This document shows, piece by piece, positions 42,054 through 64,000 of a DNA stretch of 64,000 nt. Source of the stretch: Bdellovibrionales bacterium (GTDB taxonomy: Bacteria > Bdellovibrionota > UBA1018 > CAIMNF01); contig CANBTI010000005.1 in NCBI GenBank assembly GCA_947372355.1, forward strand, positions 103 through 64,102, written 5' to 3'. The position numbers and the translations under genes are program-made. Below the pieces are notes generated by a model, which ran no database searches, was not told the DNA's origin, and saw only the letters and a list, made by a program, of their open reading frames with translations. The first letter of the stretch is position 1, and each line of letters opens with the position of its first letter.

Positions 42054-42602
42054 TTAACGGCCATTATTGTTGTCACATGGTGTTGGAGTTGGAGTTACGG
42101 TAGATCTTGTAATATGTGCTTTAACTACACAATAGATCACTGCTCCAACAATCACCACTCCGATTACTCGCATTGCCCAACGGTAACTACCTTGACCCCC
42201 ACTATAATTAGCTCCGTGTTGGTAACTACCAGCCATGAAATTCATCGCTAGATTACCAGCTTGCTCAGCAGAAACTTGACTTGTATCAATGGAAGTTAAT
42301 AAACGATCAAAATCCGCTCTTGCAGCTTCATCTAGAGTTGTGGTGCGCATGAAATCCATGATTTCAGTTGGTGCAATACCTTGCGCTTGTAAATTTTCTA
42401 ATTTTTGTTTGAAATCTGTAATAGCAACAGTTTGAAAGTTTGGATCATTAGGATCAACTTCAACTGTCATTTTATATCGAAATTCATTAAATGTTTTAGC
42501 AATCATTTTTGAATGTAAATCAATGTTATCATTTCCTACTGCAGCGAATGCCGAGTTAGAAACCATAGCTAAAACTGTGAACAGACTGAATACTTTTTTC
42601 AT
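42054..42602 (-). CDS. Secreted/membrane-anchored protein, paralog A (signal peptide, conserved ~130-aa domain, C-terminal TM)
   Basis: MKKVFSLFTVLAMVSNSAFA; shares TFNEFRYKMTVEVDPND...RADFD.LL.S...VS.E.AGNLAM.FMA..YQ.GA.YSGG and the TM (VIGVVIVGAVIYCVV) with 42788..43777. Confidence 0.6.
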   Translation of the reverse strand: MKKVFSLFTVLAMVSNSAFAAVGNDNIDLHSKMIAKTFNEFRYKMTVEVDPNDPNFQTVAITDFKQKLENLQAQGIAPTEIMDFMRTTTLDEAARADFDRLLTSIDTSQVSAEQAGNLAMNFMAGSYQHGANYSGGQGSYRWAMRVIGVVIVGAVIYCVVKAHITRSTVTPTPTPCDNNNGR

Positions 42603-42787: not shown

Positions 42788-43777
42788 TTAATTGAAGCCG
42801 TGGTCAGGAGGTCCTAACTTAATGCATAACTCGGGATAAAGAACAAACTCCAATGCTTCACCATGATCACATCCGGTAGGACTAGCTGGAACCACATGTC
42901 CACTCACTGTATTGCAACACCATCCGTAGTCAGTGTTAGTATGGGTATCTGTGCAAGTATTAGTTACTGTATTTGTTATAGTATCAGTAAGTGTATTTGT
43001 AATAGTATCCGTTACTGTATTAGTTAACGTTTCAAAATTAGTAATAGTATTATAATTGGTAACGGTTTGAACAGAGGTCACAGTATCAGTAGTTACCACT
43101 GTATTATAATTTGTTACTGTTTCTGTATTATTAATTGTTTCTACGTTCGTTACTGTTTGAGTATTCGTTTGAACTTCAGTAGTTGTCACGGTATCGGTAG
43201 TTGTTTGAGTTTCTGTGTTAGTTTGTGTTTGAGTGTTAGTTCTTGTGACCGTATCTGTTACCGTTTTTGATCGCTGATCTTTACAATGCTTAATCACTAA
43301 ATAAGTGACAACCCCAACAATGATCACACCGATCACGATTAATGCAGCCTTATAATTTGCTCTACCACCACCACTGTAACTCGCACCTTGTTGATATTTA
43401 GCTGCCATAAATCTCATTGCAAGATTACCGGCTTCTTCACTTGAAACTTTATCGAGATTCAATGAAGAAAGCATGAGATCAAAATCAGCACGAGTAGAAG
43501 AATCAAGAACTGATGAACGCATGTAATCCATCACTTCTTCAGAAGAAATCCCTTTGGCCTGCAGATCAGCCATACGGTTTTTAAAATCTTCCATTGCTTT
43601 AGCTTTATACTGCGTATCGCTTGGATCCAGTTCAACAGTCATTTTATATCTAAAATCATTGAATGTTTTAGAGATCATATTCCTATGAGAAGAATTTATT
43701 CCTTCATTCGTTATGCCAGCAAGTGCTGAATTGGAGAGCATCGTGATAATGGTTAATAACCCTATTATTTTTTTCAT
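42788..43777 (-). CDS. Secreted/membrane-anchored protein, paralog B, with long Thr-x-Thr repeat region and Cys-rich C-terminus
   Basis: MKKIIGLLTIITMLSNSALA; conserved domain and TM as paralog A; then TVTDTVTRTNTQTQTNTETQTTTDTVTTTEVQTNTQTVTNVETINNTETVTNYNTVVTTDTVT...TDTHTNT; C-term DYGWCCNTVSGHVVPASPTGCDHGEALEFVLYPELC. Confidence 0.6.
   Translation of the reverse strand: MKKIIGLLTIITMLSNSALAGITNEGINSSHRNMISKTFNDFRYKMTVELDPSDTQYKAKAMEDFKNRMADLQAKGISSEEVMDYMRSSVLDSSTRADFDLMLSSLNLDKVSSEEAGNLAMRFMAAKYQQGASYSGGGRANYKAALIVIGVIIVGVVTYLVIKHCKDQRSKTVTDTVTRTNTQTQTNTETQTTTDTVTTTEVQTNTQTVTNVETINNTETVTNYNTVVTTDTVTSVQTVTNYNTITNFETLTNTVTDTITNTLTDTITNTVTNTCTDTHTNTDYGWCCNTVSGHVVPASPTGCDHGEALEFVLYPELCIKLGPPDHGFN
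42950..43270 (-). repeat. Degenerate short-period coding repeats (gtNacN units) encoding the Thr-x-Thr tract
   Basis: Repetitive gtaac/gttac/gtatc units across about 320 nt inside gene 42788..43777. Confidence 0.6.
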
Positions 43778-46454: not shown

Positions 46455-47336
46455 ATGATTACTCGTAGCTCATTTCAACAATTTAATTTTAATTTTCTAG
46501 AGATTGAATCCGAGGATGATTCCGGCTCACTCCTTCGCTCACTTCCGGATCAAGGATTGGCGATTGTGGGCACTCGATATCCTCAACAGAAATCCTTTGA
46601 ATTACTTGAAAATACGATCAAAGATCTTGCCGGTTCTAATTTAGTTATTGTTTCTGGATTTGCTAGAGGTGTTGATTCTCGTGCGCATGAACTCGCGATT
46701 GAACATGGATTAAAAACAATTGCCATCTTAGGCTGTGGTTTGAATATCGACTATCCGAGAGAAAATCGGGCCTTAAGAAAAAAGATTCTAGATCATGGAG
46801 GAATGATCATCTCCCCTTTTGAGCGGGATGAACCCGCATTACCAAGAAATTTTTTAAATCGGAATCAACTCATCGCCTATTTCTCGAAAGCGGTTTGGGT
46901 AGTAGAAGCGGCGGCCATCTCTGGAACGCTCAATACCGCAAAACATGCTTCCGAACTGAATCGTGATTTATATGCAACTCCCTGTTTTCCAAATGATCCG
47001 TTTTTTGAGGGAAATCAAAAACTGCTTTCTCAACAAAATTCTGAAAAATATCCCGTTGCTGATCTATTTTATGGCGTTAATTCATTCGGTAAAACTTGGA
47101 AAAACATCAGCATGGTGAATACGATTCATAAAACTACCAAAAGAAAAAATAGGAGCAAAATTCAAAATTGGATTTTAAATCTACAATTTGAACAAGGCGA
47201 ATGCAGAGTTCAAAGTTTGATGAATTTTGCTATATCAAAAGGAATCACTGCTGGGCAGTTTTATCAGGAATATGAAATTGAGCTCAATTCAGGGAAAATT
47301 ACTGAAAACCTGCTAGGGATAGTAGATCTAAAGTAA
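46455..47336 (+). CDS. dprA: DNA-processing protein DprA (Smf)
   Basis: LAIVGTRYPQQKS...VIVSGFARGVDSRAHELAI...TIAILGCGLNIDYPREN...RNQLIAYFSKAVWVVEAAAISGTLNTAKHASELNRDLYATP Rossmann-like DprA core. Confidence 0.7.
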   Translation: MITRSSFQQFNFNFLEIESEDDSGSLLRSLPDQGLAIVGTRYPQQKSFELLENTIKDLAGSNLVIVSGFARGVDSRAHELAIEHGLKTIAILGCGLNIDYPRENRALRKKILDHGGMIISPFERDEPALPRNFLNRNQLIAYFSKAVWVVEAAAISGTLNTAKHASELNRDLYATPCFPNDPFFEGNQKLLSQQNSEKYPVADLFYGVNSFGKTWKNISMVNTIHKTTKRKNRSKIQNWILNLQFEQGECRVQSLMNFAISKGITAGQFYQEYEIELNSGKITENLLGIVDLK

Positions 47337-48480
47337 TGGGGCCCTTTACCCATTGATTCATCAATTGCTCTACAGTTCTCTCCAACTCTCCAATATTTCC
47401 CCGCCACTCTTGATTCATAAACCAAGTTTCAACTAAAGGATCAATCTGGACTGGTGGTACTCCACGTTTTCTACAAGCCTTATCAAAAAAATAGGGCAGT
47501 AAATCAGTTTGAATATCTTTTTTTCGTTCCCGGAGCGGCTTTAATATAATTTTATCTAAAGTGAGCTTTGCATAGAGTTCAACATGAAAAGTTCCATCTT
47601 TCACTTTTTGAGAAAGATCTTTTGAACTGGTAGCAATGATTCTAAAATCGACAGGAAATTTTTTTGCACCACGAACCCGAGTGAAAAAATCATTTTCAAG
47701 TGCTGAAAAAAGGGCATTTTGCGCTTCAACACCAAGGGCATCCACTTCATCTAATAATATCGTGCCCCCTAAACCTAACTCAAAAGATCCTGGTTTAGAA
47801 AAAAAGCTCATTGGCATCGCACCTTTTTCTAGCCCAAACAACTCTCCTACTTGAAAAACATTTGGTATGGCGTCGCAATGGACTTGAATAAATGGATTCC
47901 TCGCCCGATCAGATTTACGATGAATTTCATAAGCAATACTTCTTTTGCCTGAGCCGACTTCACCAAACATAAATACATGAGAGTTAGTAGCCGAAATCCT
48001 TTCAGTTTGCTCGCGTAATTGAATGGTACTTTGCTCAGTACCAAATAATGGAACCGGAACAGGTCCCACTCCCTGTGCATTCATCATTTCAAGAGCAGGT
48101 TCTCTTTTTTTACGTTTACGGGTTTGAATCGCTTTTTTCAAAATGCGTGAAAGATCATCTTGATCAAAAGGTTTTAAGATAAAGTCAAAGGCTCCACTTT
48201 TCAGTGCCGTCACCGCGGCCTCAATAGTACCAAATGCCGTGATTAAAATAACGGGTAAATCAGGCGAGTAATCCTTACAGTATTTTAAAACATCTAATCC
48301 TGTATGCTCAGGCATGGAGAGATCAGTAATCACCACACTGACATCTTCAGTGTTCAATGTTTCCAAAGCATTCTTAAAGCCATCGAAACTAAATACCTCA
48401 TAACCCTCTCGGGTGAGAAGGGCATCTAAGATTTTTCTAATATTCGGTTCGTCGTCTATGACGATGATTTTATCACGCAT
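47299..48480 (-). CDS. NtrC-family REC-AAA+ regulator lacking an intact GAFTGA loop and lacking the C-terminal HTH
   Basis: REC (IIVIDDEPNIR...ITDLSMPEHTG), AAA+ Walker A GEVGSGKRS, but sigma-54 contact loop reads VGELFGLEKGAMPMSFF (GAFTGA->GAMPMS) and protein ends right after AAA+ domain (393 aa). Confidence 0.75.
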   Translation of the reverse strand: MRDKIIVIDDEPNIRKILDALLTREGYEVFSFDGFKNALETLNTEDVSVVITDLSMPEHTGLDVLKYCKDYSPDLPVILITAFGTIEAAVTALKSGAFDFILKPFDQDDLSRILKKAIQTRKRKKREPALEMMNAQGVGPVPVPLFGTEQSTIQLREQTERISATNSHVFMFGEVGSGKRSIAYEIHRKSDRARNPFIQVHCDAIPNVFQVGELFGLEKGAMPMSFFSKPGSFELGLGGTILLDEVDALGVEAQNALFSALENDFFTRVRGAKKFPVDFRIIATSSKDLSQKVKDGTFHVELYAKLTLDKIILKPLRERKKDIQTDLLPYFFDKACRKRGVPPVQIDPLVETWFMNQEWRGNIGELERTVEQLMNQWVKGPITLDLLSLAGFQ

Positions 48481-50429
48481 AACTTAATTTTTACGCTAGT
48501 ACCCTCTCCCTCAGTGGATTCTAAGGATATTTCTCCCTGACTAAACTTTACCAGTCTTTCACAAATCGATAAACCTAAACCAGTGCCTGTTTCAAATGTA
48601 GTAAAAAAAGGCTGAAATACCTTCTTTTTAACATCTTCGGTCATGCCCACACCATTATCTTTAATGTAAAACCCAGAGTCTTCTAACCCTACTTCAATCA
48701 ACTTGGCCTGAGCTTTTAATGCATTTTGAATCAAATTCATTAGGATTTGCTGTATGTGATCGGCAACACCCAAAACCATAATGGGTTTTAAGCTGTGAGC
48801 TTCAAATTTAATCTCTGCTTGCTTACCATAAAATGTAGAAAGATTTTGAATGGAACGTTCAAGACATTCACCGAGGTTGAGTTCTTCCAACTGATCACCG
48901 GGCGCATTCGCGAATTCAAGAAACTGATTCACCAAGCGATTCAATCTTTGAACTTCATCTTGAATTACTTTTACCCAAGGATCAGAACTGGATGCAATGA
49001 GGTTGGTTGCCCCTTGAATAGCCCCTAGAGGATTGCGAACTTCATGTGCCAATCCTGCAGCCATTTCACCTAATAAAATCAGCCGATCCCGTTCACGGGC
49101 ATAATCAATTTGAGAAATCTTCACCGAGGTTTTTTCAACTTCCTGGAGCGCTTTAAATATTTTGGAATATAAACTATAGTCCTCGTGCCAATCATCAATA
49201 GAAACAGCAGCAGAAAGCATCACAAACATAATCGGAATAGGATGTTTGAGATCTGAAGAGTAAATAGGAAAAATCACATCTACTTCCATCAAATCTAAAT
49301 AGTTGAGAATCCCTTCAAGATTTTTTTGTAACTCACTCGTCACTACCTGATCTTTTTCCATCTGGATGAGCTCTCGATGAATGATCGGAATGAGTGAAGA
49401 ATTAGAGTTTCGATATAAATATTTCTCAACTGCTTCAGGAAGCTTCGTTGTTCTTTCTAATTCTAATACTTTTGTTTTGGAATTTGGAATCCAAATTAAA
49501 AATGATTTTTGAATCAACTCTTCCAGTTCATTTTTACTCGTGATGAAAGGAAGAGAGGTTAAAAATTTATTGAGTTGAAGTTCACCCAATTGGTTCTTAC
49601 CCACTAATAACTTTCTACCAAGAAAACGAAAAAATGAAATGAGCGGATTCCATAAAATCAACACCGCAAAAGTAAGTAAAAAGGAATTGAGAAAAAAGAG
49701 CGGAAAACTTTCACTCATGTATTGATAAAGAAGAGCGAAAAACCCGGTAATAACCAGGGAAAGAATCACGGTTGCGAAAAAACGGGTGGTGAGAGCCTGT
49801 ATACTCAAAATTTTCTGAGGCGATACCAATTGACTAATAAAGATTAAATAAATGGTGAGTAAAAGATTACCCAATGCTGGAATCGTGAAACCCAATTGAG
49901 GGATATGATCAAATGAACAGGTGATTAAACTCACTACTAACCCAAAATATAGCCCAATTCTTTTTGTGGGTGAAAAAAAGTCTACGCTCACAGGAACGCC
50001 TAAAAATAAATCTTTGGCCATCACGTACATAAATTCAAAAACAACAAAGACCGGCCAAAAGGAAACAATGTTCCAAAATACATCACCACTTCCGAGTGAA
50101 AAAGAAATCATCACACTTAAAATCAATGCACCAAAAACACTGATCCAGCGGAGCGACTTACTCACCCCATCCTCACGGGAAAGAATTTTTGAAAGGATGG
50201 TTACCCCCACCGGCACTAGCCAAACGTGAAAAATCCAATGAATATCTTTGGATAGCCTTCCAACCAACGTGGCGTAAGAAACAAAACTAAGTGCCCAGAT
50301 GGAAATGAATAAACAAAGTACGGTGAAGAGGATTGCTAGTTTTTGTTTCCAGTTTCTATAAAGGGTCCAAACGCCGATGGATAAACTGGCTAGCCCTAAA
50401 ATGAGCGATGTTTGCTTTAGAAGATTCAT
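48456..50429 (-). CDS. Membrane sensor histidine kinase with large N-terminal multi-pass TM sensor region
   Basis: About 9 predicted TM helices in first 300 aa; H-box MAAGLAHEVRNPLGAIQG; HATPase_c (GLGLSICERLVKFSQGEISLES); 25-nt overlap with downstream regulator. Confidence 0.8.
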   Translation of the reverse strand: MNLLKQTSLILGLASLSIGVWTLYRNWKQKLAILFTVLCLFISIWALSFVSYATLVGRLSKDIHWIFHVWLVPVGVTILSKILSREDGVSKSLRWISVFGALILSVMISFSLGSGDVFWNIVSFWPVFVVFEFMYVMAKDLFLGVPVSVDFFSPTKRIGLYFGLVVSLITCSFDHIPQLGFTIPALGNLLLTIYLIFISQLVSPQKILSIQALTTRFFATVILSLVITGFFALLYQYMSESFPLFFLNSFLLTFAVLILWNPLISFFRFLGRKLLVGKNQLGELQLNKFLTSLPFITSKNELEELIQKSFLIWIPNSKTKVLELERTTKLPEAVEKYLYRNSNSSLIPIIHRELIQMEKDQVVTSELQKNLEGILNYLDLMEVDVIFPIYSSDLKHPIPIMFVMLSAAVSIDDWHEDYSLYSKIFKALQEVEKTSVKISQIDYARERDRLILLGEMAAGLAHEVRNPLGAIQGATNLIASSSDPWVKVIQDEVQRLNRLVNQFLEFANAPGDQLEELNLGECLERSIQNLSTFYGKQAEIKFEAHSLKPIMVLGVADHIQQILMNLIQNALKAQAKLIEVGLEDSGFYIKDNGVGMTEDVKKKVFQPFFTTFETGTGLGLSICERLVKFSQGEISLESTEGEGTSVKIKLCVIKSSS

Positions 50430-53775: not shown

Positions 53776-55260
53776 TTATTCATCATTGCCACAATGTCCT
53801 GGCCCAACTTCACCATTATTATAATGGTCTAAAGTATCATGCCAGTTTGAAACATTATCTTTTTCGTTATCATCTAAGTTTTGCCAGTCATTTTGATTGT
53901 GATTGGAGAGGAATTGGTCACATTGGCTAATGATCGATGATACAGCTGATGTATCAGAGCCATGAGCTTTACTTAATTTAGCTGCAAGTAATTGTGCATA
54001 AAGTTTAGTAATTCCATTTGAAGACGATCCATAAACTTTTTGTCCAAGTACATCGATTGCTGTAGAAGTGGAAACAATGTTAAAAGACTTTGTTCCACCC
54101 ACTGTTCCTAGACATTGAACTAAGTTAGGAGTAACCGCAGCCATGTGATTTTTCCAATATCCAATTGTGTAAGTACAATTGTTTCCGCCAGTAGGGTAAG
54201 GAGTTGCTGTTGGAGTCGCAGTCGGTGCTGGAGTCGGAGTCGCAGTCGGTGCTGGAGTCGGAGTCGCAGTCGGAGTCGCAGTCGGAGTCGCAGTCGGTGC
54301 TGGAGTCGGAGTCGGTGCTCCGTATGGCAAGCAACCTTTGAATATATGATGATTATATTGACCTGCACCGTATGCAGATTGAGCAATAAAATGTCCATTC
54401 AATTGTCCTGATGGGAAAGTAACATCAGCAAATGGAGCCAAAATTGAACCTTCAAAAGAAATGTTTCCGATCCAGATTGATTGAGCGGTTGGAAAGTTAA
54501 ACACTACATGACTTTGATCTGTACCGTGCAATTCCATTGCAAAACTTGCAATCGTAATTGCAGAGCCTTTTACGTTGATCAATGCTGTTGAATCTGCAGG
54601 AATGGTTAAACTTAAAAATTGTGAACGTTCGAGATCATCCGTAGTCATAGTAAAAACGTTGATCACTGGATCAGTACCCACTAAAATAGTGTCGTGTCTT
54701 GAACTGATGTTTTCTAATGTCACCGTTGAATTAGAAACCAACCCACCTAAAGTAGTGGACATCGATTTTAAGTAGTCACCAGAATTTGCAAAACTAAGAG
54801 GGCTTACATGTTGAGTAAATCCACCAAAAGCAGACGTTGCGAATTTAGTTAAAGACCCACCATAAATAACCTTACCTTTATTTACAGCACCACTTTGAAA
54901 ATTTAAATCTCCATTAACGATGAGGTCTACTCGATTAGCATCTTCATCAAGAATTTCACCTACACTATAGTTTTGAATAGTTGCATTTCCGCCAACCGCT
55001 AATCTTCCTTCTGTATCCGAGCTTGGCGCTTCAAAATTACCTAGTGTAAAAACGTTGAAATCCCATGCATCTGATAAAGCTGCTTCATAACAAACACCGT
55101 AATTTGGCGTAATATGGGATGCCGATTGACTTAAATCAATGGAGTAAGATGGGTCAGTACCAGGAAGTACACATCCTGAAACAATGAACATCGTTCCTAA
55201 AATTAAAGAAACATTTTTAAAATTTTTATTAAACGAATTTTGTTTTCTCATAGATCTCAT
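53776..55260 (-). CDS. Lipoprotein with N-terminal choice-of-anchor-A-like domain, Pro/Thr/Ala repeat linker and Cys-containing C-terminal domain
   Basis: Lipobox IVSGC; DAWDFNVFTLGNFEAPSSDTEGRLAVGGNATIQNYSVG resembles choice-of-anchor A family; linker APTPTPAPTATPTATPTATPTPAPTATPTPAPTATPTATP. Confidence 0.6.
   Translation of the reverse strand: MRSMRKQNSFNKNFKNVSLILGTMFIVSGCVLPGTDPSYSIDLSQSASHITPNYGVCYEAALSDAWDFNVFTLGNFEAPSSDTEGRLAVGGNATIQNYSVGEILDEDANRVDLIVNGDLNFQSGAVNKGKVIYGGSLTKFATSAFGGFTQHVSPLSFANSGDYLKSMSTTLGGLVSNSTVTLENISSRHDTILVGTDPVINVFTMTTDDLERSQFLSLTIPADSTALINVKGSAITIASFAMELHGTDQSHVVFNFPTAQSIWIGNISFEGSILAPFADVTFPSGQLNGHFIAQSAYGAGQYNHHIFKGCLPYGAPTPTPAPTATPTATPTATPTPAPTATPTPAPTATPTATPYPTGGNNCTYTIGYWKNHMAAVTPNLVQCLGTVGGTKSFNIVSTSTAIDVLGQKVYGSSSNGITKLYAQLLAAKLSKAHGSDTSAVSSIISQCDQFLSNHNQNDWQNLDDNEKDNVSNWHDTLDHYNNGEVGPGHCGNDE
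54205..54320. repeat. Tandem 12-nt DNA repeats (gtcggagtcgca / gtcggtgctgga variants) encoding the PT(A) linker
   Basis: Near-perfect tandem units visible directly; spurious ORFs 54120..54398(-), 54125..54334(-), 54145..54411(+) arise from this repeat. Confidence 0.8.
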
Positions 55261-55437: not shown

Positions 55438-56466
55438 TTGCATGGCGCACCCAACCTCAGGTTTAATAGAAAAGTGATGAATTTGTTCATTGGATTATTT
55501 TTAGCTATTTTTATGGCATTTTTTACGCCCATTTCTGCTCAAGCAAAACCAACATGGTCTGCTTATGTGGCAGATTGGGGAAATATTTCAGATTCAACTG
55601 TTTTAATTGAAAATATACAAAACGTGGATACAGTTTGGCTGAGAATGTTTAGTGTTCTGCCGAACGGACACCTAGACACCAAGTGGAATCCTGCCGGCCC
55701 AGTTACACCAGTTTTACAAAAGTTGATGAAAATAAAGAATGGACCTCACTTTGGACCCATCATTCACAACGCCGGAGCGAATGGATTTTCACAAACATTC
55801 GGACGGCTCATTTTAAAATCTGCTGATCTATGGCTTCCTGAAATTTTAACACTCAAAAAAAAATGGAAATTTAATTCTCTTCAATTAGACATTGAAGAGA
55901 TGGACCCCGAAGATGCAATTCTATTCGAAGATACCGTCAAAAAAGTATCAATTTTTGCAAAAAAAAATAATCTCGATTTTTCGATCGCACTTCATGCACA
56001 AACAGAAAATATTCCTAAGAATGTTGGCGCTCGATTCCAGCGCTGGTCTGAATTAAAACAAATTCCAGTAAAAAAAATCGTCATGGGACTCGATTATTCA
56101 TGGGCCGGTGGAGAGCCGGGTCCGATTGCTCCAACCGAATGGCTTCAAAAAATTGTCGCTCATGCACTATTATTTTTTAAGCCTCAGGATTTGGTGGTTA
56201 CTTTACCATTGTATGGTTATCATTGGAGAAAAGGTAAACTCGGCGAATCTGCATTACCCGAAGAGTTTATCAGCAAAGTGACCCAAGATAAAAAATGGAA
56301 ACGAGATGTCATTCAAAATGAATCAGTTTATCGCAAAGAAGAAGAAGTTATCAGTTTTGAAAATACTGAATCCGTTCTTCAGAAAAAAACTGCCATCGAG
56401 AAATTGGGAATACACTCTTTTGCAATCTGGAGAGCCGGCGGCGAACTATCCAATCTCTATCGTTAA
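55438..56466 (+). CDS. Secreted GH18-like (chitinase-like TIM-barrel) glycoside hydrolase
   Basis: Signal peptide; GH18 landmarks in order: WSAYVADWG, IIHNAGANGFS (SxGG), NSLQLDIEEM (DxE catalytic), VMGLDYSWAG (MxYD), LPLYGYHW, FAIWRAGGE. Confidence 0.55.
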   Translation: MHGAPNLRFNRKVMNLFIGLFLAIFMAFFTPISAQAKPTWSAYVADWGNISDSTVLIENIQNVDTVWLRMFSVLPNGHLDTKWNPAGPVTPVLQKLMKIKNGPHFGPIIHNAGANGFSQTFGRLILKSADLWLPEILTLKKKWKFNSLQLDIEEMDPEDAILFEDTVKKVSIFAKKNNLDFSIALHAQTENIPKNVGARFQRWSELKQIPVKKIVMGLDYSWAGGEPGPIAPTEWLQKIVAHALLFFKPQDLVVTLPLYGYHWRKGKLGESALPEEFISKVTQDKKWKRDVIQNESVYRKEEEVISFENTESVLQKKTAIEKLGIHSFAIWRAGGELSNLYR

Positions 56467-57997
56467 ATATATCTTACCCACTCTCTTCATTGGATTGAAT
56501 GCTCATGCCATAAATAATGATCCGTGTAGCTTGCAAAGTTTAGATGAATTTAGAGCTGCCGCTCAAATGCAAAATCCAAAAACGGAAAGTTTATACAAAA
56601 ACATTAAAGATTGCGGTGCGCTCAGAAGTGAAGTTTTAATTTGGATGAGTTATTACGATCGAACGGTAGGAGGTAACTCTACAAGGTTGCTTGAAAACGA
56701 TTCTGAATCGAGCGATGCCCTCAGCGAGAGAGATGCACTCATTGCAAAAGCAAATCGAAATCTATACCAACCTCTAGAAGAAGTCGTTTATAATGAATCC
56801 AGCTCATACCATCATGATGCAGAGGCAATTCTTGTTTTAGCCAGAGCATTTACCCGAGGTTCAGAATTTACAAAAGCGCGTGAGTGCTATTTAAATTACT
56901 TAAAGTTAAAGCCTGATGATACTGAAATCGAAGTTGAGTATGCATATACATTTTTATGGGCCGGTGACACCAAAAACGCCGAAAAAAATCTAAAAGATCT
57001 TGAAATCAATTCTAAAAATGCCGAACAATCACGAGCAGCAAGAGAAGGCCTTAAAAGATTAAAACTAATGGGGCATCCAGCTTTTTCAGATATTATTTCT
57101 AGGCTAGAACATTTCAGTGTTGGACTTGAACGATACAATAATAACTTTTTTAATTTCTCTAGAACTTCTACCCTCCTCGAATATGGAAATAAAGGGTGGT
57201 TACTATTAGGATCTGCAGATTTTTTAAATTCTTCTCAATATTCTAATGCAGGTGGAGGTGGGCTCACCGGTAGTAAAAGTTTCGCACTCTCCCCTACGGT
57301 TTCAAGCTATGTAAAATTAGGATTTTTTAGTGCTGGAAAAGGCGGAGTTCCGGTTTTCCATTTGAATGTAAAAAAGGAAACTAAATCGGGATTAATTCCT
57401 GGAATTGGCTATTACAATGAAGCACTCGCTCATGATGTGCCCCTTCCATCCAGTAATTTGAATTGGTCACGTTCAGCCTTTTATGGAAGATTACAATTCA
57501 AACAATGGCTTGATTATAGAATTGAGTTTAGATCACTTGGATCTGGAACAGGTGGAACCACATCTACTGATCATCAAGTGCACATTAATATTCCAATTAA
57601 AGCAAATGAAGATGGTAGTCACCCATTAGAACTTTATATTTTAGCCGAGAATGAAGCATTCACCAAGGCAAGTACCTTTGTATATTCTCCGAATAGCTAC
57701 ACCGCACTCAAGGGTGGTTTACTCTATCAAGATCGCATGAACGATGAAATGGATTTAAAATTAAATCTTGAATATGGTCCATTTTATGAATCTGCAGCAA
57801 AGACTTCAGCACTTACTTATGGAAGCGCTGCTAACCTTTTGGGCATCGGCGGAGCATTCACTTACAAACTTGAACCGGATTTATTTGCCAATTTTAAATT
57901 CAGATATGATCGCACCCAATCCGATGAAGCAGGAACGACTTATGCTGCAACGGTTTTTGGATTAAATGTAACTTGGCTACTACAGGATGAACCATGA
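56306..57997 (+). CDS. TPR-repeat + C-terminal beta-barrel outer-membrane export protein (PgaA/PelB/BcsC-like); start ambiguous
   Basis: Signal-like KYILPTLFIGLNAHA, TPR-like helices (AEAILVLARAFTRGSEFTKARECYLNYLKLKPDD...), then about 330 aa of amphipathic beta-strands ending ...FGLNVTWLLQDEP. The first 160 nt overlap the GH18-like gene in another frame. Confidence 0.55.
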   Translation: MSFKMNQFIAKKKKLSVLKILNPFFRKKLPSRNWEYTLLQSGEPAANYPISIVKYILPTLFIGLNAHAINNDPCSLQSLDEFRAAAQMQNPKTESLYKNIKDCGALRSEVLIWMSYYDRTVGGNSTRLLENDSESSDALSERDALIAKANRNLYQPLEEVVYNESSSYHHDAEAILVLARAFTRGSEFTKARECYLNYLKLKPDDTEIEVEYAYTFLWAGDTKNAEKNLKDLEINSKNAEQSRAAREGLKRLKLMGHPAFSDIISRLEHFSVGLERYNNNFFNFSRTSTLLEYGNKGWLLLGSADFLNSSQYSNAGGGGLTGSKSFALSPTVSSYVKLGFFSAGKGGVPVFHLNVKKETKSGLIPGIGYYNEALAHDVPLPSSNLNWSRSAFYGRLQFKQWLDYRIEFRSLGSGTGGTTSTDHQVHINIPIKANEDGSHPLELYILAENEAFTKASTFVYSPNSYTALKGGLLYQDRMNDEMDLKLNLEYGPFYESAAKTSALTYGSAANLLGIGGAFTYKLEPDLFANFKFRYDRTQSDEAGTTYAATVFGLNVTWLLQDEP

Positions 57998-59283
57998 TCG
58001 TTAGAATGTTCATTGCGCTTTTTTTACTATTTGGGACCAGTATATTTTTTGATCCAGCAAAGATTCCACGTTTATCCACTACGGGATTCCTTGGATTCAT
58101 TAACTTTGGAATTATTTTTTATATTTTAATTTTAGCACTCAGGCATTTTGTCATGCTTTTTTTCTCAGCGCTTGAAACTGCACGCAGAGAAGGATTGCCA
58201 CAACCAAATTTCTTTCCTCCGATTTCGATTATCGTTCCTGCCTATAATGAGGGTGTTGTGATTCAAAGAACGATTGAACAACTGGCGCACATCAAATACC
58301 CAGTTTTTGAAATAATAGTTGTGGATGATGGAAGTAAAGATAACACTTACGATTTAGCTGTGGAAACTGCCAAATCGCATTCGCAAACGAGGGTATTAAC
58401 CAAGCCAAACAGCGGCAAAGCCAATTCTTTAAATTTTGGAATTAAAGAAGCTCGTTATGATTATGTGTTTTGTATGGATGCAGATTCCATCGTGCATGTA
58501 AACGCGCTCAGCATGGGTGCAAGACACCTCGTCGATCCATATGTTGTTGCAGTTGCAGGCTCAGTACTAGTACTCAATACCAACTCCATTGTTGGAAAAT
58601 TCCAAACACTTGAATATTTAACCGGGTTAAATTTTTATAAAGCAGCACAAAGTTTTTTTGGTCTAGTGATGATTATTCCAGGTCCTTCAGGATTATTTAG
58701 GAAATCTGCTTTGAACGCAATCGGCGGTTATGAAACAGATACTTTTGCAGAAGATTGCGATGTTACCCTTCGATTACTCATGAATAATGGGCGCGTGGTA
58801 TTTGAACCCGACATGGAAGTGAGAACGGAGGTTCCTGCTGATTTTTTACAATTAATTAAGCAACGATACCGTTGGAATCGCGGAATTCTTCAAGCAACTC
58901 GAAAACACATTGGCAAAATTTTTACATTTTATCAAGATCCAGCTTCAGCTGTAGTGGTTTCCTATATGTTTGTTGAATCAGTAATGTTACCCATCACTAA
59001 TATTTTCATCGGCGTATTATCTTTGTTTTACGTTTTTTACGCCATGGATTTTACGGTTGCTTCTTTGTGGCTGGTTCAACTCACGTTGATGGATCTTGCT
59101 GTAGTCGTGATGACCCTTTGGGATCAACGCTGGAGTTTAAATCTTTTATTTTATGCATTTTTCAATCGTTTTACTTATGCCTTCTTTCAAGACATTGTAA
59201 AAGTATTCTCCATGCTAGAGGAGTTTGCCGGAATTAGAATGAACTGGGGAAAATTAGATAGAACTGGGGTTTCTGGTTCATGA
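57994..59283 (+). CDS. Family-2 processive beta-glycosyltransferase (PgaC/IcaA/NodC/BcsA-like synthase)
   Basis: 2 N-terminal + 3-4 C-terminal TM helices; VVDDGSKDNT, FCMDADSIV (DxD), QRYRWNRG (QxxRW at 58861-58875). Confidence 0.85.
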   Translation: MIVRMFIALFLLFGTSIFFDPAKIPRLSTTGFLGFINFGIIFYILILALRHFVMLFFSALETARREGLPQPNFFPPISIIVPAYNEGVVIQRTIEQLAHIKYPVFEIIVVDDGSKDNTYDLAVETAKSHSQTRVLTKPNSGKANSLNFGIKEARYDYVFCMDADSIVHVNALSMGARHLVDPYVVAVAGSVLVLNTNSIVGKFQTLEYLTGLNFYKAAQSFFGLVMIIPGPSGLFRKSALNAIGGYETDTFAEDCDVTLRLLMNNGRVVFEPDMEVRTEVPADFLQLIKQRYRWNRGILQATRKHIGKIFTFYQDPASAVVVSYMFVESVMLPITNIFIGVLSLFYVFYAMDFTVASLWLVQLTLMDLAVVVMTLWDQRWSLNLLFYAFFNRFTYAFFQDIVKVFSMLEEFAGIRMNWGKLDRTGVSGS

Positions 59284-62210
59284 CACTTTTTGATGCAATC
59301 TTAACCTTGATTACGATTTTATCCGCATTCACTGTTATCCATTTCTGCTATAAACAACGAAAGCTAAAATACGCTAAACTAGGAATGGCAATCGGAATCC
59401 TTTCAATCCTTTATTGTGCTAATCCAATTTTGAGTTGGTATAAGATGAAGAATCTTAAATACTCCGGTCTGAATGAATCGGAGACTCAATCCGCATCGGG
59501 CGTTCCAATGGCACACGGGATTCCCACTCGTTGGACAGGTGAAGCCCTTTTGTTTGATCTCACCGTTGCTGGTAAATCGATTCAAAATTATATTGATGAA
59601 GCAGGACAAAAAAATAAACTTTTAATCTTTAGTGCAGAGAATGGAATTTTACCTGAATACCAAGCTTGGGCAGAAAAGGAATTTGGTAAAATTTTACCTG
59701 TAGATTCAGAAATAAATAATGTATGTTTTCGTCGTCAACCTGAAGTTCCTTATGCAAGTGGTATTTGTAGAGAGTTTAAAGCACGTTATTCACTTGTTCC
59801 TTCAGCTTCTGCATATGCAATCAGCTCAGATGGGAAAAATTCCTTTATTCACTTAAAACAGTCTGGTTTATCTCGATATGGAATTACTACTATTTCATTA
59901 GATGGTAGTCCTGAAACTTTGTGTTTATCTGAACTATCTAAAGGATCTGCCTGTGCTGGAGTAGAAATTTTGCCAGATGGTGCACTTTCAGTTTTATTTT
60001 TAGAAGCAACCGATCCAATCCAAAAACATGTAATGGAAGAATTTAAAGTTCCAGATATGAGTTTGGGAGAACTTCATTTGCAAAACTCCGATCATCAATT
60101 TAACTGTGGGGGGTTTGATTTAAAGAACAACCTCACCACCATTACCCATACTTCTTTAAAAACCAGACTCAGTCAAATCAACAGTGAAAATGAACTCACT
60201 GAAGTGATTCAAGATCTGAACTCTCACCTGCCTTGTCCTGGCCCGATCTCTCTTGAAGTTCCTGTTTTTCTAAATAGGAAACTAGAGCCAACCACTCGTT
60301 CATTTCTCACTCAGGTTCTTGAAAAACCATTCTGGGTTACTCCTCCAGCGAGTTATTTTGGAAGAAAACAAAAAATCGAAAAAACCGAACTTTTTCAAGA
60401 TGGATATAAATTGGTAGTTAAATCTCCAATCGAAATTAAAAACTTTGCAATTACCATCATGAGTCCCGTTACTTTTGATGAGGAGATCCTTCATTTCATT
60501 AAGCCCTCAAACATCAATGATTTTAAAATTTACAGAATCGGCGCCACTACCTTTAGGCTAGTTTCAAACCTAGTGAAGGATCTTGATTTTTCAGTAGATA
60601 CTGCTCCACTGCTTCGAGGAACTAGTGCCAGTAACGCATCTACCGTTTCAGACTGGACTGGATTTAATCGATCAATGTTGTTTGCTCTTTCTTTGGCTCT
60701 CATCATCAGTTGGCTTCAAGGATTTGCAACAGCACGCACAGAAAAACAGGTCTTTTTCCCCATGACCTTCTTTTATATTTGCTTCATTGGTTTACTTTGG
60801 TTTTTCTTAAGCAGTCGCGCTTCTTACTTAGGAGATCAAGGGGTTGCAAACTTAACTGAAGAGAGATTATCTGATCCACAATATATTACCGTGAGAGATT
60901 GGAATGAAAATTGGTGGAAAAAAGATCTTGAGGATCAAGAAGTGCATCAAGCAAGCAGTCAATCTAATAATGCCTCATGGAGAGCGGAAGTTGAACTTGC
61001 CAGAAAAGCTTCAAATTCAAATATTCCAACTGCAGAAGCAATTAAGTTTCTTGATTTAAATCCAAGTGCTAATCCAAAATATTTATCACAAGTGAGAATT
61101 CAAGTATGGGATGCACCTGAAGTTCGCAATTGGTACTTTAGAAAATCACCTTCGTACGCAAGCGCTCTTACGGCTTGGCAATCCTTACTTCAATTTCCAG
61201 AAATCAAGGGCGAAATTGATTCAAGCGCAACTCTAGATTTTAATCACATCAATCATAATACAATCATTGTAGTTCTTGATTATGCACTTCTTTCTGAATC
61301 AAATCAAAAAGCACTCAATGATTGGATCAGTAATGGAGGCACAGCCGTATTCCATACAGCGCTCGACTCTGCACTGAGTAAGGATCCTGAATTATTTCAA
61401 AAGAAAAATTACTCAAAAATTCCAGATGCGTTTGGAGTACCTCTAGAAATTAATCGAACTCACTTCATACAAAGTAAAACCGGAGATTGGTTCAATATTA
61501 AAAAAATTGGTAGTGGAAGAAAAGTGTTTGCAGGGGTTGTTCCATACCAAACAAACTCACTTCAATTGTTAAAGGAACTATTACACGGATTAAATCGATC
61601 AAGCGTGGTCGTGAATTCATTTCATGATGATGGCTGCCACACCGCTATTTTTGCAGAACCTTATGGTGCAAGTTCTGAAACTTTGCGAAGCTTTTCGAAT
61701 CACTTAAAAGCTACTGGTGTAAATATTCAATGGGCTATTTCTGCGGAAAGTTTTGCTAGAATGGCCCCAGAGTGGAAAAATACATTTACCCCTCAAAACA
61801 TAGCCTTTTTAGATGATGGAAAGCCGATCATGCGCGCATTCTCCACAGAACTTTATCAACGGTTCTTTAAAGTAACCAGTAAACCAGTATTCATAACGAT
61901 TAAGGATGAAAAACCAAACTTGATTGGACCCGAGGCGTTGTTAGTGAGAGCGGAAGTTCTTGAATCGGTTGATCTTTGGGAGTCTAGCTGCATTACAGGA
62001 GTTTCTCGTCCTAGACTCCTCACTTCAAACGAAATCAAAAACTCAATTGGAATTTGGCAAAACAAGATTTCCTCTTTAAAAACATTCCATTTTCAAACTG
62101 GAATTCAACTTTTAGATAATGCACCACTTTTATCATCTCCCGGAAAACGTAAGTGGATTAGTAATGAATCGAACCCCATGAAGTACGCCCCCGAAAGGAC
62201 CTCACCATGA
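59280..62210 (+). CDS. 976-aa multi-pass membrane protein of EPS-type locus (unknown; C-terminal region with possible class-I glutamine-amidotransferase-like fold)
   Basis: TM helices at N-terminus and around aa 470-520; ATGA-coupled to GT2 gene; C-term IIVVLDYALLSESNQKALNDWISNGGTAVF. Confidence 0.55.
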   Translation: MTLFDAILTLITILSAFTVIHFCYKQRKLKYAKLGMAIGILSILYCANPILSWYKMKNLKYSGLNESETQSASGVPMAHGIPTRWTGEALLFDLTVAGKSIQNYIDEAGQKNKLLIFSAENGILPEYQAWAEKEFGKILPVDSEINNVCFRRQPEVPYASGICREFKARYSLVPSASAYAISSDGKNSFIHLKQSGLSRYGITTISLDGSPETLCLSELSKGSACAGVEILPDGALSVLFLEATDPIQKHVMEEFKVPDMSLGELHLQNSDHQFNCGGFDLKNNLTTITHTSLKTRLSQINSENELTEVIQDLNSHLPCPGPISLEVPVFLNRKLEPTTRSFLTQVLEKPFWVTPPASYFGRKQKIEKTELFQDGYKLVVKSPIEIKNFAITIMSPVTFDEEILHFIKPSNINDFKIYRIGATTFRLVSNLVKDLDFSVDTAPLLRGTSASNASTVSDWTGFNRSMLFALSLALIISWLQGFATARTEKQVFFPMTFFYICFIGLLWFFLSSRASYLGDQGVANLTEERLSDPQYITVRDWNENWWKKDLEDQEVHQASSQSNNASWRAEVELARKASNSNIPTAEAIKFLDLNPSANPKYLSQVRIQVWDAPEVRNWYFRKSPSYASALTAWQSLLQFPEIKGEIDSSATLDFNHINHNTIIVVLDYALLSESNQKALNDWISNGGTAVFHTALDSALSKDPELFQKKNYSKIPDAFGVPLEINRTHFIQSKTGDWFNIKKIGSGRKVFAGVVPYQTNSLQLLKELLHGLNRSSVVVNSFHDDGCHTAIFAEPYGASSETLRSFSNHLKATGVNIQWAISAESFARMAPEWKNTFTPQNIAFLDDGKPIMRAFSTELYQRFFKVTSKPVFITIKDEKPNLIGPEALLVRAEVLESVDLWESSCITGVSRPRLLTSNEIKNSIGIWQNKISSLKTFHFQTGIQLLDNAPLLSSPGKRKWISNESNPMKYAPERTSP

Positions 62211-63583
62211 GTAACCCATTTCACTGGAATCATCGAAGTTTAGATCAGGTGTGTGAAAAACTACAAGATTTTAGCACTTTGCTTTTGAGTGCAAAAGATG
62301 CTGCCGATCTCGATACACTTTGGAAATTAGCAAAAGATCGCTTATATCCCAATATTTTAAATGCTTCGCTTCAAACATATATTTTTGATGAGCGAAATAT
62401 GGATATTCAGGAATTAAAATCGATTAACGTGAAAACTGCAGATGTAATCTTATTTAGAAAGAAAAGTGCTGGTGGCTCTTGGGATCAAACCATCTTAAAA
62501 GATCTAGCAGAACTCCCAGGTGCGGTGCTGGCATTTTCAGAAACCACACCCCTAAATTGGAATACTCTATTTGATATCGTTTTAGAACTGAAAGATCCCA
62601 TTTGTAGAATACATAGAAAAAATGATCCTAAGCATGAGGAAGTTGCTTTTACGTTTACTGAAAAGAAGGCTACCACCACTACTCAATCGTTAAGTGAAAA
62701 GGCCAAAGGAATTGTTTACTTTCTAGATGTAGATCCAACTCTTCAAAAAAGTATCACTCGTGGAATTGCTTTCGCAAATTTAGAAGTGCATTCCATTGAT
62801 CAGGATCAATCCATTCCTAGCTTTTCCCAAGGTGATTTTTTAATTACGGATCTAGCAGAAGATCACCCTAAACTTGTAGAATGTTTTGAACTTGCCAGAT
62901 CAAACTCCGTTCCGGTGATTGTGATCGGTAAAAAACTGAAACGAGTTGAAGATCGACTCCGGTTGTATGATTGGGGATCCACTTTTATACTACCTAAGGA
63001 TGCCTCTAACGCTGAACAAATTGCATCGATCACTTCCATTTTGAAGTTTTCTGGCCATAATCAAGTTTCATCCGTATTTGCGATGGATGAGTGGGATATT
63101 GAACTTCAACGCCTTTCTCAAAAAGTAAAAAGAGATCTCTCCTGGAACGAGAACCAAACACCAGAATTGATCAATTACTATAAAGCGTTTGTTTCTCACT
63201 TAATCAAACGCTCCCAACATTCAGGCACACCATGCGGAGTGATTAGAATCCCTCTGCCAGATCTCTCCGCAATTGCCGCTGAAAAGGCATCTTGGATTAA
63301 TTTAATGCGTAGAACACTTTTGCAAAGCCTAATCGCTACCGTAAGACAAAGAGACATTACCTTTGTATTCGAAGATCACTTGGTTATTATTTCTGGCGAT
63401 CTTTCTCCATTAGGATCTACGTACGTGGTGAATCGAATTCAAGCACAATTAAAATCTTTGGGTGAAACTCCAGCTAAAGTTGAACGACTTTCATTCATTC
63501 CAGAAAATTATCAAAGAAATGGGGAAGCTGAAGAATTATTAAAAAAAGCGGTCTCCAAATTCTTCGGGAATGAAGGTACATGA
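62207..63583 (+). CDS. Cytoplasmic protein with C-terminal degenerate GGDEF-like domain retaining an RxxD I-site (candidate c-di-GMP receptor, PelD-like logic)
   Basis: VRQRD-ITFVF-EDHLV: RxxD (63344-63355) followed 5 residues later by the position of GG(D/E)EF, which reads EDHLV; flanking segments (GVIRIPLPDLSAI..., STYVVNRIQAQL) fit GGDEF secondary-structure pattern. Confidence 0.45.
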   Translation: MSNPFHWNHRSLDQVCEKLQDFSTLLLSAKDAADLDTLWKLAKDRLYPNILNASLQTYIFDERNMDIQELKSINVKTADVILFRKKSAGGSWDQTILKDLAELPGAVLAFSETTPLNWNTLFDIVLELKDPICRIHRKNDPKHEEVAFTFTEKKATTTTQSLSEKAKGIVYFLDVDPTLQKSITRGIAFANLEVHSIDQDQSIPSFSQGDFLITDLAEDHPKLVECFELARSNSVPVIVIGKKLKRVEDRLRLYDWGSTFILPKDASNAEQIASITSILKFSGHNQVSSVFAMDEWDIELQRLSQKVKRDLSWNENQTPELINYYKAFVSHLIKRSQHSGTPCGVIRIPLPDLSAIAAEKASWINLMRRTLLQSLIATVRQRDITFVFEDHLVIISGDLSPLGSTYVVNRIQAQLKSLGETPAKVERLSFIPENYQRNGEAEELLKKAVSKFFGNEGT

Positions 63584-64000
63584 AGTTTTACTTGTTTCTC
63601 TCGAATCTGCTTTTTGGGATCACCCTACTCACCTTCGCGGTGGCAGTGAGCCACTTCCTGGGAATTATTTTAATTAAGCGTTTACCGCACATGCCGATAG
63701 CAGTAAAAAAACAATTCCGTTTTCTACTTCTTTTTGCATTCATATCCATCAGTATGTTTCTATTCTTTGGTAAATTGATAGGAGTAGGTGCGCATTCTTT
63801 GCGTTTTGCTGATGAAGCAAGAATTACCGAAGGCTTAGTTCCCAGACTCATTCAGTCTCAAGTTGCCAAAGAATCCAGTTTCGTTGAAACTCCAATCTCT
63901 TTAGAGCAAAGCATCACATTATTTAATCCAGAAGTTGAAAGTGAATCTGAAAAATACTCCTCACTTGGATTATCGATGCGTTTTATTTCCAGTGCTAAAG
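63580..64000 (+). CDS. Membrane protein, 5' portion (continues beyond window end)
   Basis: ATG 63580 overlaps upstream stop (ATGA); open frame to window end; two TM helices (LFLSNLLFGITLLTFAVAVSHFLGIILI; LLLFAFISISMFLFFG). It is absent from the ORF track because it is truncated, and the minus-strand ORF 63588..63851 is its antisense. Confidence 0.5.
   Translation, partial: MKFYLFLSNLLFGITLLTFAVAVSHFLGIILIKRLPHMPIAVKKQFRFLLLFAFISISMFLFFGKLIGVGAHSLRFADEARITEGLVPRLIQSQVAKESSFVETPISLEQSITLFNPEVESESEKYSSLGLSMRFISSAK

Follow-up and report, generated by a model that had tools for sequence, protein, structure and literature searches.

A soluble protein with degenerate receiver and GGDEF domains, encoded next to a PgaC-like synthase in a Bdellovibrionales bacterium, is a candidate c-di-GMP receptor

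In this study, we analysed a gene for a 458-amino-acid (aa) protein that lies near the end of a 64,000-nucleotide window of a Bdellovibrionales contig (CANBTI010000005.1), in an operon with a membrane GT2 synthase resembling PgaC. Our results suggest that the protein is a soluble receptor for cyclic di-GMP (c-di-GMP) that acts on the GT2 synthase machinery through a degenerate receiver domain (REC*) and a degenerate GGDEF domain (GGDEF*), and we give this mechanism as a whole a probability of roughly six in ten. The proposal rests on the predicted fold of the C-terminal domain, on the identity of the few residues that are conserved within it, on a second conserved RxxD motif in the receiver domain, and on the conserved position of the gene near the GT2 gene.

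Results

The C-terminal domain is predicted to adopt a GGDEF fold that has lost catalysis

The starting point was an earlier note on this DNA, made from the sequence alone, that had pointed to an RxxD motif, RQRD, exactly five residues in front of a pentapeptide, EDHLV, standing where GG(D/E)EF would be expected. This observation is confirmed: the motif, the five-residue spacer (ITFVF, encoded at 63356-63370) and EDHLV are all in frame in the 458-aa open reading frame (ORF). The span of 63344-63387 given for them begins correctly and overshoots the true end, 63385, by 2 nucleotides. On the opposite strand over the RQRD site, no ORF of 60 aa or more was found. An RxxD tetrapeptide alone is not beyond chance in this protein, which contains six of them where about 1.5 are expected from its composition; what exceeds chance is the placement of RQRD in the modelled GGDEF fold and the invariance of R380 and D383.

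The family to which the protein belongs is very small. A word-indexed search of 5.8 billion proteins returned 5 matches, and 16 cluster representatives were recovered when 1.84 billion proteins were searched exhaustively with a profile, nearly all of them 430-520 aa long and of the same layout, with no ordinary GGDEF protein among them. No relatives were found when the contigs of GTDB representatives were scanned with the close-family alignment. Conservation of the C-terminal domain was scored over 17 sequences, the distant ones being 12-25% identical to the query.

A profile of these 17 domains matched the GGDEF domain of Escherichia coli DosC among the PDB sequences (E 0.0018, 100 residues), with the family RxxD lying on RSSD and R410 on the arginine of 'AERIR'. 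An AlphaFold model of residues 312-458 (mean predicted local distance difference test score, pLDDT, 85.8; predicted template-modelling score 0.80) has its elements in the GGDEF order (alpha0, beta1, alpha(1-2), beta2, turn, beta3, alpha3, beta4, alpha4), and RQRD sits at the alpha2/beta2 junction, directly before the beta2-turn-beta3 hairpin. When this model was submitted to Foldseek, the top 50 PDB matches were all GGDEF domains, with a probability of 1.00, and included DosC (2.5e-6), TM1788, WspR, PleD, Dcsbis, YfiN and PelD (4eu0, 1.3e-3). The full-length model found its best matches in the REC-GGDEF proteins WspR (1.8e-7), DgcR and PleD, over about 510 columns, and also matched residues 217-523 of BcsE (6ybb_F, E 5.6e-4, 317 columns). 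Because the DosC profile match, the AlphaFold model and the Foldseek matches agree, we conclude that the C-terminal domain has, as modelled, a GGDEF fold. The idea that the region is not a GGDEF fold, which the earlier note had named as fatal to its proposal, fails on the in-register match to DosC, the 125 PleD columns aligned by hhalign and the 50 GGDEF folds among 50 matches.

The pentapeptide at the GGDEF position varies across the family (EDHLV, RDNLV, GDRLV, EGYLV, GSHMS, NRQIV and others). HMMER and hhalign both keep the spacer of five residues up to the first hairpin residue, and both place a one-residue deletion in the hairpin, setting GGEEF on E-D-(gap)-H-L or E-(gap)-D-H-L; hhalign pairs E389-D390-(gap)-H391-L392 with G368-G369-E370-E371-F372 of PleD. 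The AlphaFold model has a two-residue turn, E389-D390, in agreement with the ungapped reading. Because both the metal-binding aspartate pair and GG(D/E)EF are lost, GGDEF* should be unable to make c-di-GMP. That cyclase activity is implausible had been concluded before from the hairpin motif, and the judgement holds, with Pro349 and Pro351 in place of the aspartates and a hairpin that is both degenerate and variable.

The conserved residues of GGDEF* coincide with the I-site of PleD

The allosteric site of PleD is made up of R359, D362 and R390, together with R313 from an adjacent domain (PMC7288161). In the 458-aa family, R380, D383 and R410 are the sole invariant columns of the C-terminal domain, in 17 of 17 sequences. 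The hhalign comparison of the family profile with PleD (probability 59%, pairwise E 9e-5) pairs R335 with R313, R380 with R359, D383 with D362 and R410 with R390, and sets P349/P351 against D327/D329; RQRD is likewise aligned with RSSD of DosC and with R415/D418 of BcsE. As read from these alignments, the four best-conserved residues of a catalytically dead domain are the four I-site positions of PleD. Both class features of degenerate-GGDEF I-site receptors are thereby found, a conserved RxxD five residues before the hairpin and the extra I-site arginines.

This pattern supports the earlier interpretation that I-site binding of c-di-GMP is plausible, and we infer such binding from it. The comparison with PleD needed a correction: the sequence, quoted before as RSSD-LLARY-GGEEF, is RAID-LPCRY-GGEEF when verified against the PDB chains, and RSSD is the motif of WspR (PMC7288161) and of DosC.

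A pseudo-receiver domain carries a second conserved RxxD motif

Between the N-terminal domain and GGDEF*, the family profile matches OmpR-family receivers (7e1b at E 0.0056; also CpxR, BaeR and PhoB), and many receiver domains were matched by the same region when the full-length model was searched with Foldseek. PF00072 was unmatched by the 458-aa protein, and scans of the protein against Pfam and NCBIfam gave no GGDEF match, only noise and weak hints of an OmpR-type receiver. We call REC* a pseudo-receiver because the family does not conserve the columns of the phospho-acceptor and the acidic pocket, which read, for example, LVETTEN, LVVASWN or LVRGSPK.

Besides the I-site, the best-conserved residues of the whole protein are found here, namely R246, D249, R250, Y254, G257 and E270. 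R246, R250, G257 and E270 are conserved at 100% and D249 at 93%. The second RxxD motif that they include is present in 17 of the 18 aligned sequences, P0010 having RQEE instead.

The N-terminal alpha/beta domain is modelled with a pLDDT of about 77-89. It gave no match in Pfam or in the PDB profile search, and hhalign comparisons of it with KaiC-like, BcsE N-terminal and receiver profiles were not significant. The global hhalign score of 98.8% with the KaiC-like proteins is carried by the REC domain, and we do not take it as a sign that the N-terminal domain derives from KaiC.

Related KaiC-REC-GGDEF* proteins occur near GT2 genes

A set of 80 GT2-related loci was searched with a hidden Markov model (HMM) of the 458-aa family. 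The weak matches are proteins of 520-590 aa, usually encoded 1.5-4 kb upstream of the GT2 gene, and full-length members are present at about 24 of these loci. Their N-terminal part is an ATPase of the KaiC/RecA type in which the P-loop is intact (PF06745, 1e-12 to 3e-19), their middle part a canonical receiver (PF00072, about 1e-18) bearing the same 'R-x-x-D-R' motif, and their C-terminal part gives a weak PelD_GGDEF match (8.8e-5) and reads '...LRxEDAl-5 residues-...LLLV...vveRl', and so is another degenerate GGDEF domain with RxxD and an equivalent of R390. We refer to them as KaiC-REC-GGDEF* proteins. They occur in metagenome-assembled genomes (MAGs) of Myxococcota, Deltaproteobacteria, 'Spirochaetales', Eisenbacteria and Nautiliaceae, with distant members in Betaproteobacteria. 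We know of no published description of such proteins next to GT2 genes; no literature search was made.

The receivers of the two families are clearly related (hhalign 96.5%, E 7e-10). Their GGDEF* domains align weakly, yet in register (11%, E 0.0027), and homology of the N-terminal domains is absent. In the reciprocal direction, the KaiC-REC-GGDEF* HMM matches the 458-aa protein at E 7.4e-7 over a stretch that spans both RxxD motifs. The families share a homologous REC, a colinear GGDEF* with RxxD and an equivalent of R410, and an adjoining GT2 gene of the same clade. They differ in that the KaiC-REC-GGDEF* proteins have an intact P-loop ATPase and a canonical receiver and are usually encoded upstream of the GT2 gene, whereas the 458-aa family has a shorter N-terminal domain without P-loop and is encoded two genes downstream of it.

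The 458-aa protein is encoded in a polysaccharide synthase operon

The operon comprises, in this order, genes for a GH18-like protein, a tetratricopeptide repeat (TPR)/barrel protein, the GT2 synthase, a 976-aa protein, the 458-aa protein and a 677-aa protein with a deacetylase domain; the coordinates are collected in Table 1. The start of the 458-aa gene overlaps the stop of the 976-aa gene and its own stop overlaps the start of the 677-aa gene (ATGA overlaps), and 4-bp start/stop overlaps also link the GT2 gene to its neighbours. Because these 4-bp overlaps join the genes, we regard them as one translationally coupled operon. The N-terminus of the 458-aa protein, MSNPFHW, is kept among homologues. 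GC content is about 0.38 throughout the window, in which no Rfam families, and hence no c-di-GMP riboswitch, were found.

An association with the GT2 synthase had been proposed from this single locus and turned out to be a conserved linkage. The gene of the 458-aa family directly follows a gene for a protein of about 1000 aa in 7 of 8 informative contexts, with GT2 upstream in 6. The seven contexts are the window, L002 (47% identity), L005/L006 (from 'Bdellovibrionales bacterium GWB1_55_8'), L007, L090, L092 and L091, a contig that breaks off at the upstream gene.

The GT2 synthase, the presumed regulated target of the 458-aa protein, has no PilZ domain. The best NCBIfam model, TIGR03937 (PgaC/IcaA), scores it at 200.7 bits against an equivalog cut-off of 422.3; among PDB entries it is related to synthases of hyaluronan and cellulose, and its closest relatives in named genomes belong to MAGs of Bdellovibrionales (60%) and Silvanigrellaceae (57%). 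The GH18-like gene is conserved in L002, L005, L090 and L092, and its product stands in for the hydrolase domain of PgaB. For the 976-aa protein no relatives were detected in PDB or Pfam, and some of its homologues match DUF4350 weakly or faintly. In the 677-aa protein, a polysaccharide deacetylase domain of the CE4 type (24.1 bits, cut-off 23.1) is accompanied by a weak DUF4350 match. No PgaD-like small ORF was found in the operon. Judged by these domain matches, the operon looks like the parts list of a synthase-dependent secretion system for a PNAG- or chitin-like polysaccharide (PNAG, poly-N-acetylglucosamine) without PgaD.

Table 1 Features of the 458-aa protein, its operon and related loci. 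Positions are those of the window unless a locus is named.
Feature	Position	Strand	Remarks
ORF of the 458-aa protein	62207..63583	+	ATG start; three domains; no predicted membrane segment
N-terminal alpha/beta domain, aa 1-152	62207..62662	+	conserved W7, D13, F22, D79
Degenerate OmpR-type receiver (REC*), aa ~167-285	62705..63061	+	from profile, Foldseek and hhalign
R246-V-E-D249-R250, second RxxD, start of REC* helix alpha4	62942..62956	+	candidate I-site II
Degenerate GGDEF domain (GGDEF*), aa ~312-450, helix alpha0 included	63140..63556	+
R335, helix alpha0	63209..63211	+	aligned with PleD R313 (trans/secondary I-site arginine); 87-90% conserved
P349-L-P351	63251..63259	+	in place of the catalytic metal-binding Asp pair (PleD D327/D329; DosC D-V-D)
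R380-Q-R-D383 (RQRD)	63344..63355	+	primary I-site motif RxxD; in frame
E389-D-H-L-V393 (EDHLV)	63371..63385	+	degenerate GG(D/E)EF equivalent, beta2-beta3 hairpin; non-conserved
R410, helix alpha3	63434..63436	+	aligned with PleD R390 (third primary I-site residue); invariant
GH18-like glycoside hydrolase, first gene of the cluster	55438..56466	+	signal peptide-like N-terminus; Pfam E 3e-8, above cut-off
TPR and putative beta-barrel protein	56306..57997	+	PgaA/BcsC-like export candidate; all matches weak
Membrane GT2 processive synthase, PgaC/IcaA-like	57994..59283	+	QRYRW motif; Pfam GT2 E 7e-34
976-aa membrane protein	59280..62210	+	between the GT2 gene and the 458-aa gene
677-aa membrane protein	63580..64000	+	runs off the window; full length at L001 1970-4003
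KaiC-REC-GGDEF* proteins (examples)	L014 6550-8454; L029 3570-5222; L022 9252-11132; L048 15656-17794; L038 5959-7947		about 20 further loci in addition

Several observations concern the surroundings of these genes. As listed, the ORF of the TPR/barrel protein overlaps the GH18-like ORF by about 160 nucleotides, the overlap of the counterpart in L002 being 47 nucleotides, and the true start is probably a later ATG. A gene for a secreted pAdhesive_15 (ice-binding-like adhesin) protein with a Pro/Thr/Ala-rich linker adjoins the operon in five independent contexts (window 53776-55260, minus strand; L002 14014-15636; L005 11800-13149; L006 10367-11746; L090 12080-13723), and its product may function as an adhesin together with the matrix system. 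The minus strand at 47299-50429, some 5 kb upstream of the operon, encodes a pair consisting of a histidine kinase in the membrane and an NtrC-like response regulator of the sigma-54 type. In L002, an rpoN (sigma-54) gene immediately precedes the homologous operon, a placement that hints at sigma-54 transcriptional control. Farther away, two paralogous signal-peptide proteins with a common N-terminal domain are encoded on the minus strand at 42054-42602 and 42788-43777, and in the longer one a long, Thr-rich tract of low-complexity 'T-x-T' repeats (TDTVTRTNTQTQTNTETQ...) precedes a C-terminus rich in Cys.

Discussion

Proposed mechanism

We propose that c-di-GMP, probably in the form of an intercalated dimer, is bound by the 458-aa protein at R380, D383 and R410, and that R246 and D249 of the REC* alpha4 motif probably clamp a second nucleotide, by analogy with BcsE. 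Ligand binding would shift the arrangement of REC* and GGDEF*. The complex might then activate the co-translated GT2 machinery, or it might retain c-di-GMP beside the GT2 synthase and the membrane proteins of about 1000 and 700 aa; either way, the export of a partly deacetylated exopolysaccharide of the N-acetylglucosamine type would be licensed. The protein would thus fill the regulatory place that PgaD, PelD, Alg44-PilZ and BcsE/BcsA-PilZ have in other systems.

Several results count against this proposal. PF00990 gave no match to the 458-aa protein at E ≤ 1 and none to any of the 17 family C-terminal domains at E ≤ 10, so that the profile alignment suggested earlier as a check came back empty; single-sequence Pfam scans of the same 17 domains returned only noise, including GGDEF_2 at E 0.049 in one member. 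PF16963 (PelD_GGDEF) and PF10995 (BcsE) were also unmatched by the 458-aa protein. The hhalign probability for PleD is only 59%, that for BcsE is not significant at 3-4% (from a single sequence or from an 18-sequence profile, the latter giving 3.4%), and the Foldseek TM-scores for the GGDEF matches are moderate, at 0.5-0.6. The residue mapping itself comes from alignments that are pulled by the conserved Arg and Asp columns. As to the second motif, the D249...G257 part is also a general feature of alpha4 in the OmpR family, seen in the PhoB-like 'EDRVRGLETGA'; this likeness weakens the argument for a second site, the arginine at -3 being the unusual element. Canonical GG(D/E)EF or diguanylate cyclase genes were not seen in the window or in the contigs of close relatives, and c-di-GMP signalling in the source organism is for this reason assumed. 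Finally, one family member, P0016 (L008 3542-4918), is not beside any GT2 gene, which implies either a linkage that is not universal or action in trans by this copy. Both RxxD motifs are retained in P0016, and rhomboid, phytase-like and response-regulator genes are among its neighbours.

Alternative explanations

The alternatives are, in descending order, a scaffold, a different nucleotide ligand and control by phosphorylation. According to the first, which we consider unlikely, the domain is a relic of the GGDEF fold whose conserved Arg and Asp residues serve folding or an interface of the synthase complex, and no nucleotide is bound. The weak pairwise and profile statistics and the lack of a visible diguanylate cyclase gene in the contigs named above would fit such a role, and GGDEF* of BcsE binds BcsQ by a separate surface, so a degenerate GGDEF domain can be an adaptor (PMC7439463). 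What the scaffold reading leaves unaccounted for is that the conserved residues are exactly the four ligand-contacting I-site positions and that nothing else in the domain is conserved. Moreover, domains whose I-site function has been lost normally do not retain RxxD.

That the pocket binds another nucleotide, such as 3'3'-cGAMP, c-di-AMP, (p)ppGpp or GTP, seems to us rather improbable. The R/D/R/R constellation is the set with which PleD reads guanine and phosphate, and the characterised RxxD I-sites, those of PleD, WspR, PelD, BcsE and CdgA, all bind c-di-GMP (PMC7840130, PMC3271064, PMC7288161, PMC8892547). The idea draws on the production of cGAMP by a Hypr GGDEF enzyme in the Bdellovibrio lineage, as stated in the title of PMC9140294, and on PDB entries 9g85 and 9g86, in which PleD is complexed with c-di-GMP and ppGpp or pppGpp.

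We think it very improbable that the protein is a response regulator controlled by phosphorylation, with REC as its input and the C-terminal domain as a mere output or oligomerisation module. The 458-aa protein does keep an aspartate at an acceptor-like position (ITD213) as well as Lys264, and its KaiC-REC-GGDEF* relatives have canonical receivers (Response_reg E 1e-18); against this stand the lack of conservation of the acceptor aspartate and the acidic-pocket residues across the family, a glycine at the beta4 Thr/Ser position in the 458-aa protein, and an operon without a cognate kinase gene. A chance origin of RQRD as a random RxxD in a region unrelated to GGDEF, to which six tetrapeptides where about 1.5 are expected and the missing PF00990 match might lend some colour, is refuted by the DosC match, the model and the Foldseek results, fold, register and invariance all being contrary to it.

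Implications

A c-di-GMP receptor acting on the synthase, as favoured above, would belong to an already known kind, the degenerate GGDEF I-site receptor that licenses a polysaccharide synthase. What is new is a sequence family that the domain libraries do not see and a BcsE-like layout with two RxxD motifs on a PgaC-like system; the link to the apparently undescribed KaiC-REC-GGDEF* family also appears to be new. To our knowledge, the well-studied synthase-dependent exopolysaccharide systems (cellulose, alginate, Pel and PNAG) are all gated by c-di-GMP, each through a different receptor. The locus described here seems to present a further solution in the form of a REC*-GGDEF* protein that is soluble and associated with a PgaC-like synthase without PgaD. 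Its two RxxD motifs repeat, in an apparently unrelated family, the unusual second I-site contributed by REC, for which BcsE has been the only reported case, and the relatives with an intact ATPase suggest an origin for BcsE-like regulators. R246, D249, R335, R380, D383 and R410 are mutable residues that would offer a handle on matrix control by c-di-GMP in Bdellovibrionota-like predators and their relatives.

More tentatively, and with doubts that we regard as substantial, the 458-aa family could be a branch without P-loop of widespread BcsE-like NTPase-REC-GGDEF* sensors. In these sensors, two RxxD I-sites would clamp a c-di-GMP dimer, and the sensors would be the dedicated switch, acting after translation, of an uncharacterised PNAG/chitin-like system (GH18, TPR-barrel, PgaC-like GT2, DUF4350 membrane proteins and CE4 deacetylase) in at least five phyla, exposing a catalytically competent type of ancestor of enterobacterial BcsE. 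The KaiC-REC-GGDEF* proteins have the domain order of BcsE, occur outside cellulose systems and carry an ATPase that looks live; they resemble BcsE in colinearity and at the level of motifs only.

Comparison with known systems

A role of c-di-GMP in synthase systems has been described for PelD, for BcsE with BcsA-PilZ, for Alg44 and for PgaCD, and PelD and BcsE are precedents for degenerate GGDEF domains that act as I-site receptors (PMC8892547). BcsE, the c-di-GMP sensor of E. coli-type cellulose secretion (GIL domain; PDB 6tj0 and 6ybb), consists of a degenerate NTPase followed by REC* and GGDEF*. Its GGDEF* bears I-site I (R415TGD) and its REC* bears I-site II (R306ATD), which has been validated functionally, and an intercalated c-di-GMP dimer is clamped jointly by the two sites (PMC7439463, PMC7840130, PMC8892547). 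The 458-aa protein is similar in being soluble and three-part, with the order N-domain-REC*-GGDEF*, in having RxxD on GGDEF* (R380QRD vs R415TGD) and a second RxxD at the start of REC* alpha4 (R246VED...G257 vs R306ATD...G317), and in being encoded in a synthase-dependent exopolysaccharide operon. In the one colinear alignment that hhalign gives with BcsE of E. coli K-12, taken from the genome record and with its numbering checked, R246/D249 fall on R306/D309, G257 on G317 and R380/D383 on R415/D418, and the spacings of 8 from D to G and of 6 from G to P are identical in the two proteins. The differences are that BcsE, by our own reading of its sequence, has a His at the position of the invariant R410, that the N-terminal domain of the 458-aa protein is not recognisably RecA-like, that its operon has no BcsQ/R/F genes, and that its PgaC-like synthase lacks the PilZ domain borne by BcsA. 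Membership of the BcsE family was considered and rejected, there being no PF10995 match and no significant hhalign result, including by way of the KaiC-REC-GGDEF* family. On the strength of shared motifs and layout, we regard BcsE as the nearest analogue in mechanism rather than a proven homologue.

PelD of Pseudomonas aeruginosa (PDB 4eu0 and 4dn0), to which the earlier note had likened the protein, resembles it in having a GGDEF fold that is catalytically dead but keeps RxxD intact (R367GLD); it binds c-di-GMP and is required for its polysaccharide synthase complex (PMC8892547). The likeness holds as far as a degenerate receptor linked to a synthase is concerned. As an architecture, BcsE is closer (X-REC*-GGDEF* with two RxxD motifs), PelD having a membrane anchor, a GAF domain ahead of GGDEF* and a GT4 partner, PelF, whereas the 458-aa protein has no transmembrane segment and no GAF domain, possesses REC*, partners a GT2 synthase, has genes of no known family as its other neighbours in place of PelE/F/G, and does not match PF16963.

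PleD, WspR and DgcR share with the 458-aa protein the REC-GGDEF order and are its best full-length fold matches, and counterparts of the I-site residues R359, D362, R390 and R313 are conserved; lost in the 458-aa protein are GG(D/E)EF, the metal-binding aspartates and a phosphorylatable receiver. Closer in lineage, CdgA (Bd3125) of Bdellovibrio bacteriovorus has a degenerate GGDEF domain and binds c-di-GMP with a Kd of about 2 uM (PMC3271064). CdgA is comparable in that its degenerate GGDEF domain keeps RxxD five residues upstream and acts as a c-di-GMP receptor, and it differs in being mildly degenerate (GVNEF), where the 458-aa family is undetectable with PF00990, in controlling prey entry and in being unrelated. 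PopA of Caulobacter is a further degenerate GGDEF c-di-GMP receptor that keeps RxxD five residues upstream.

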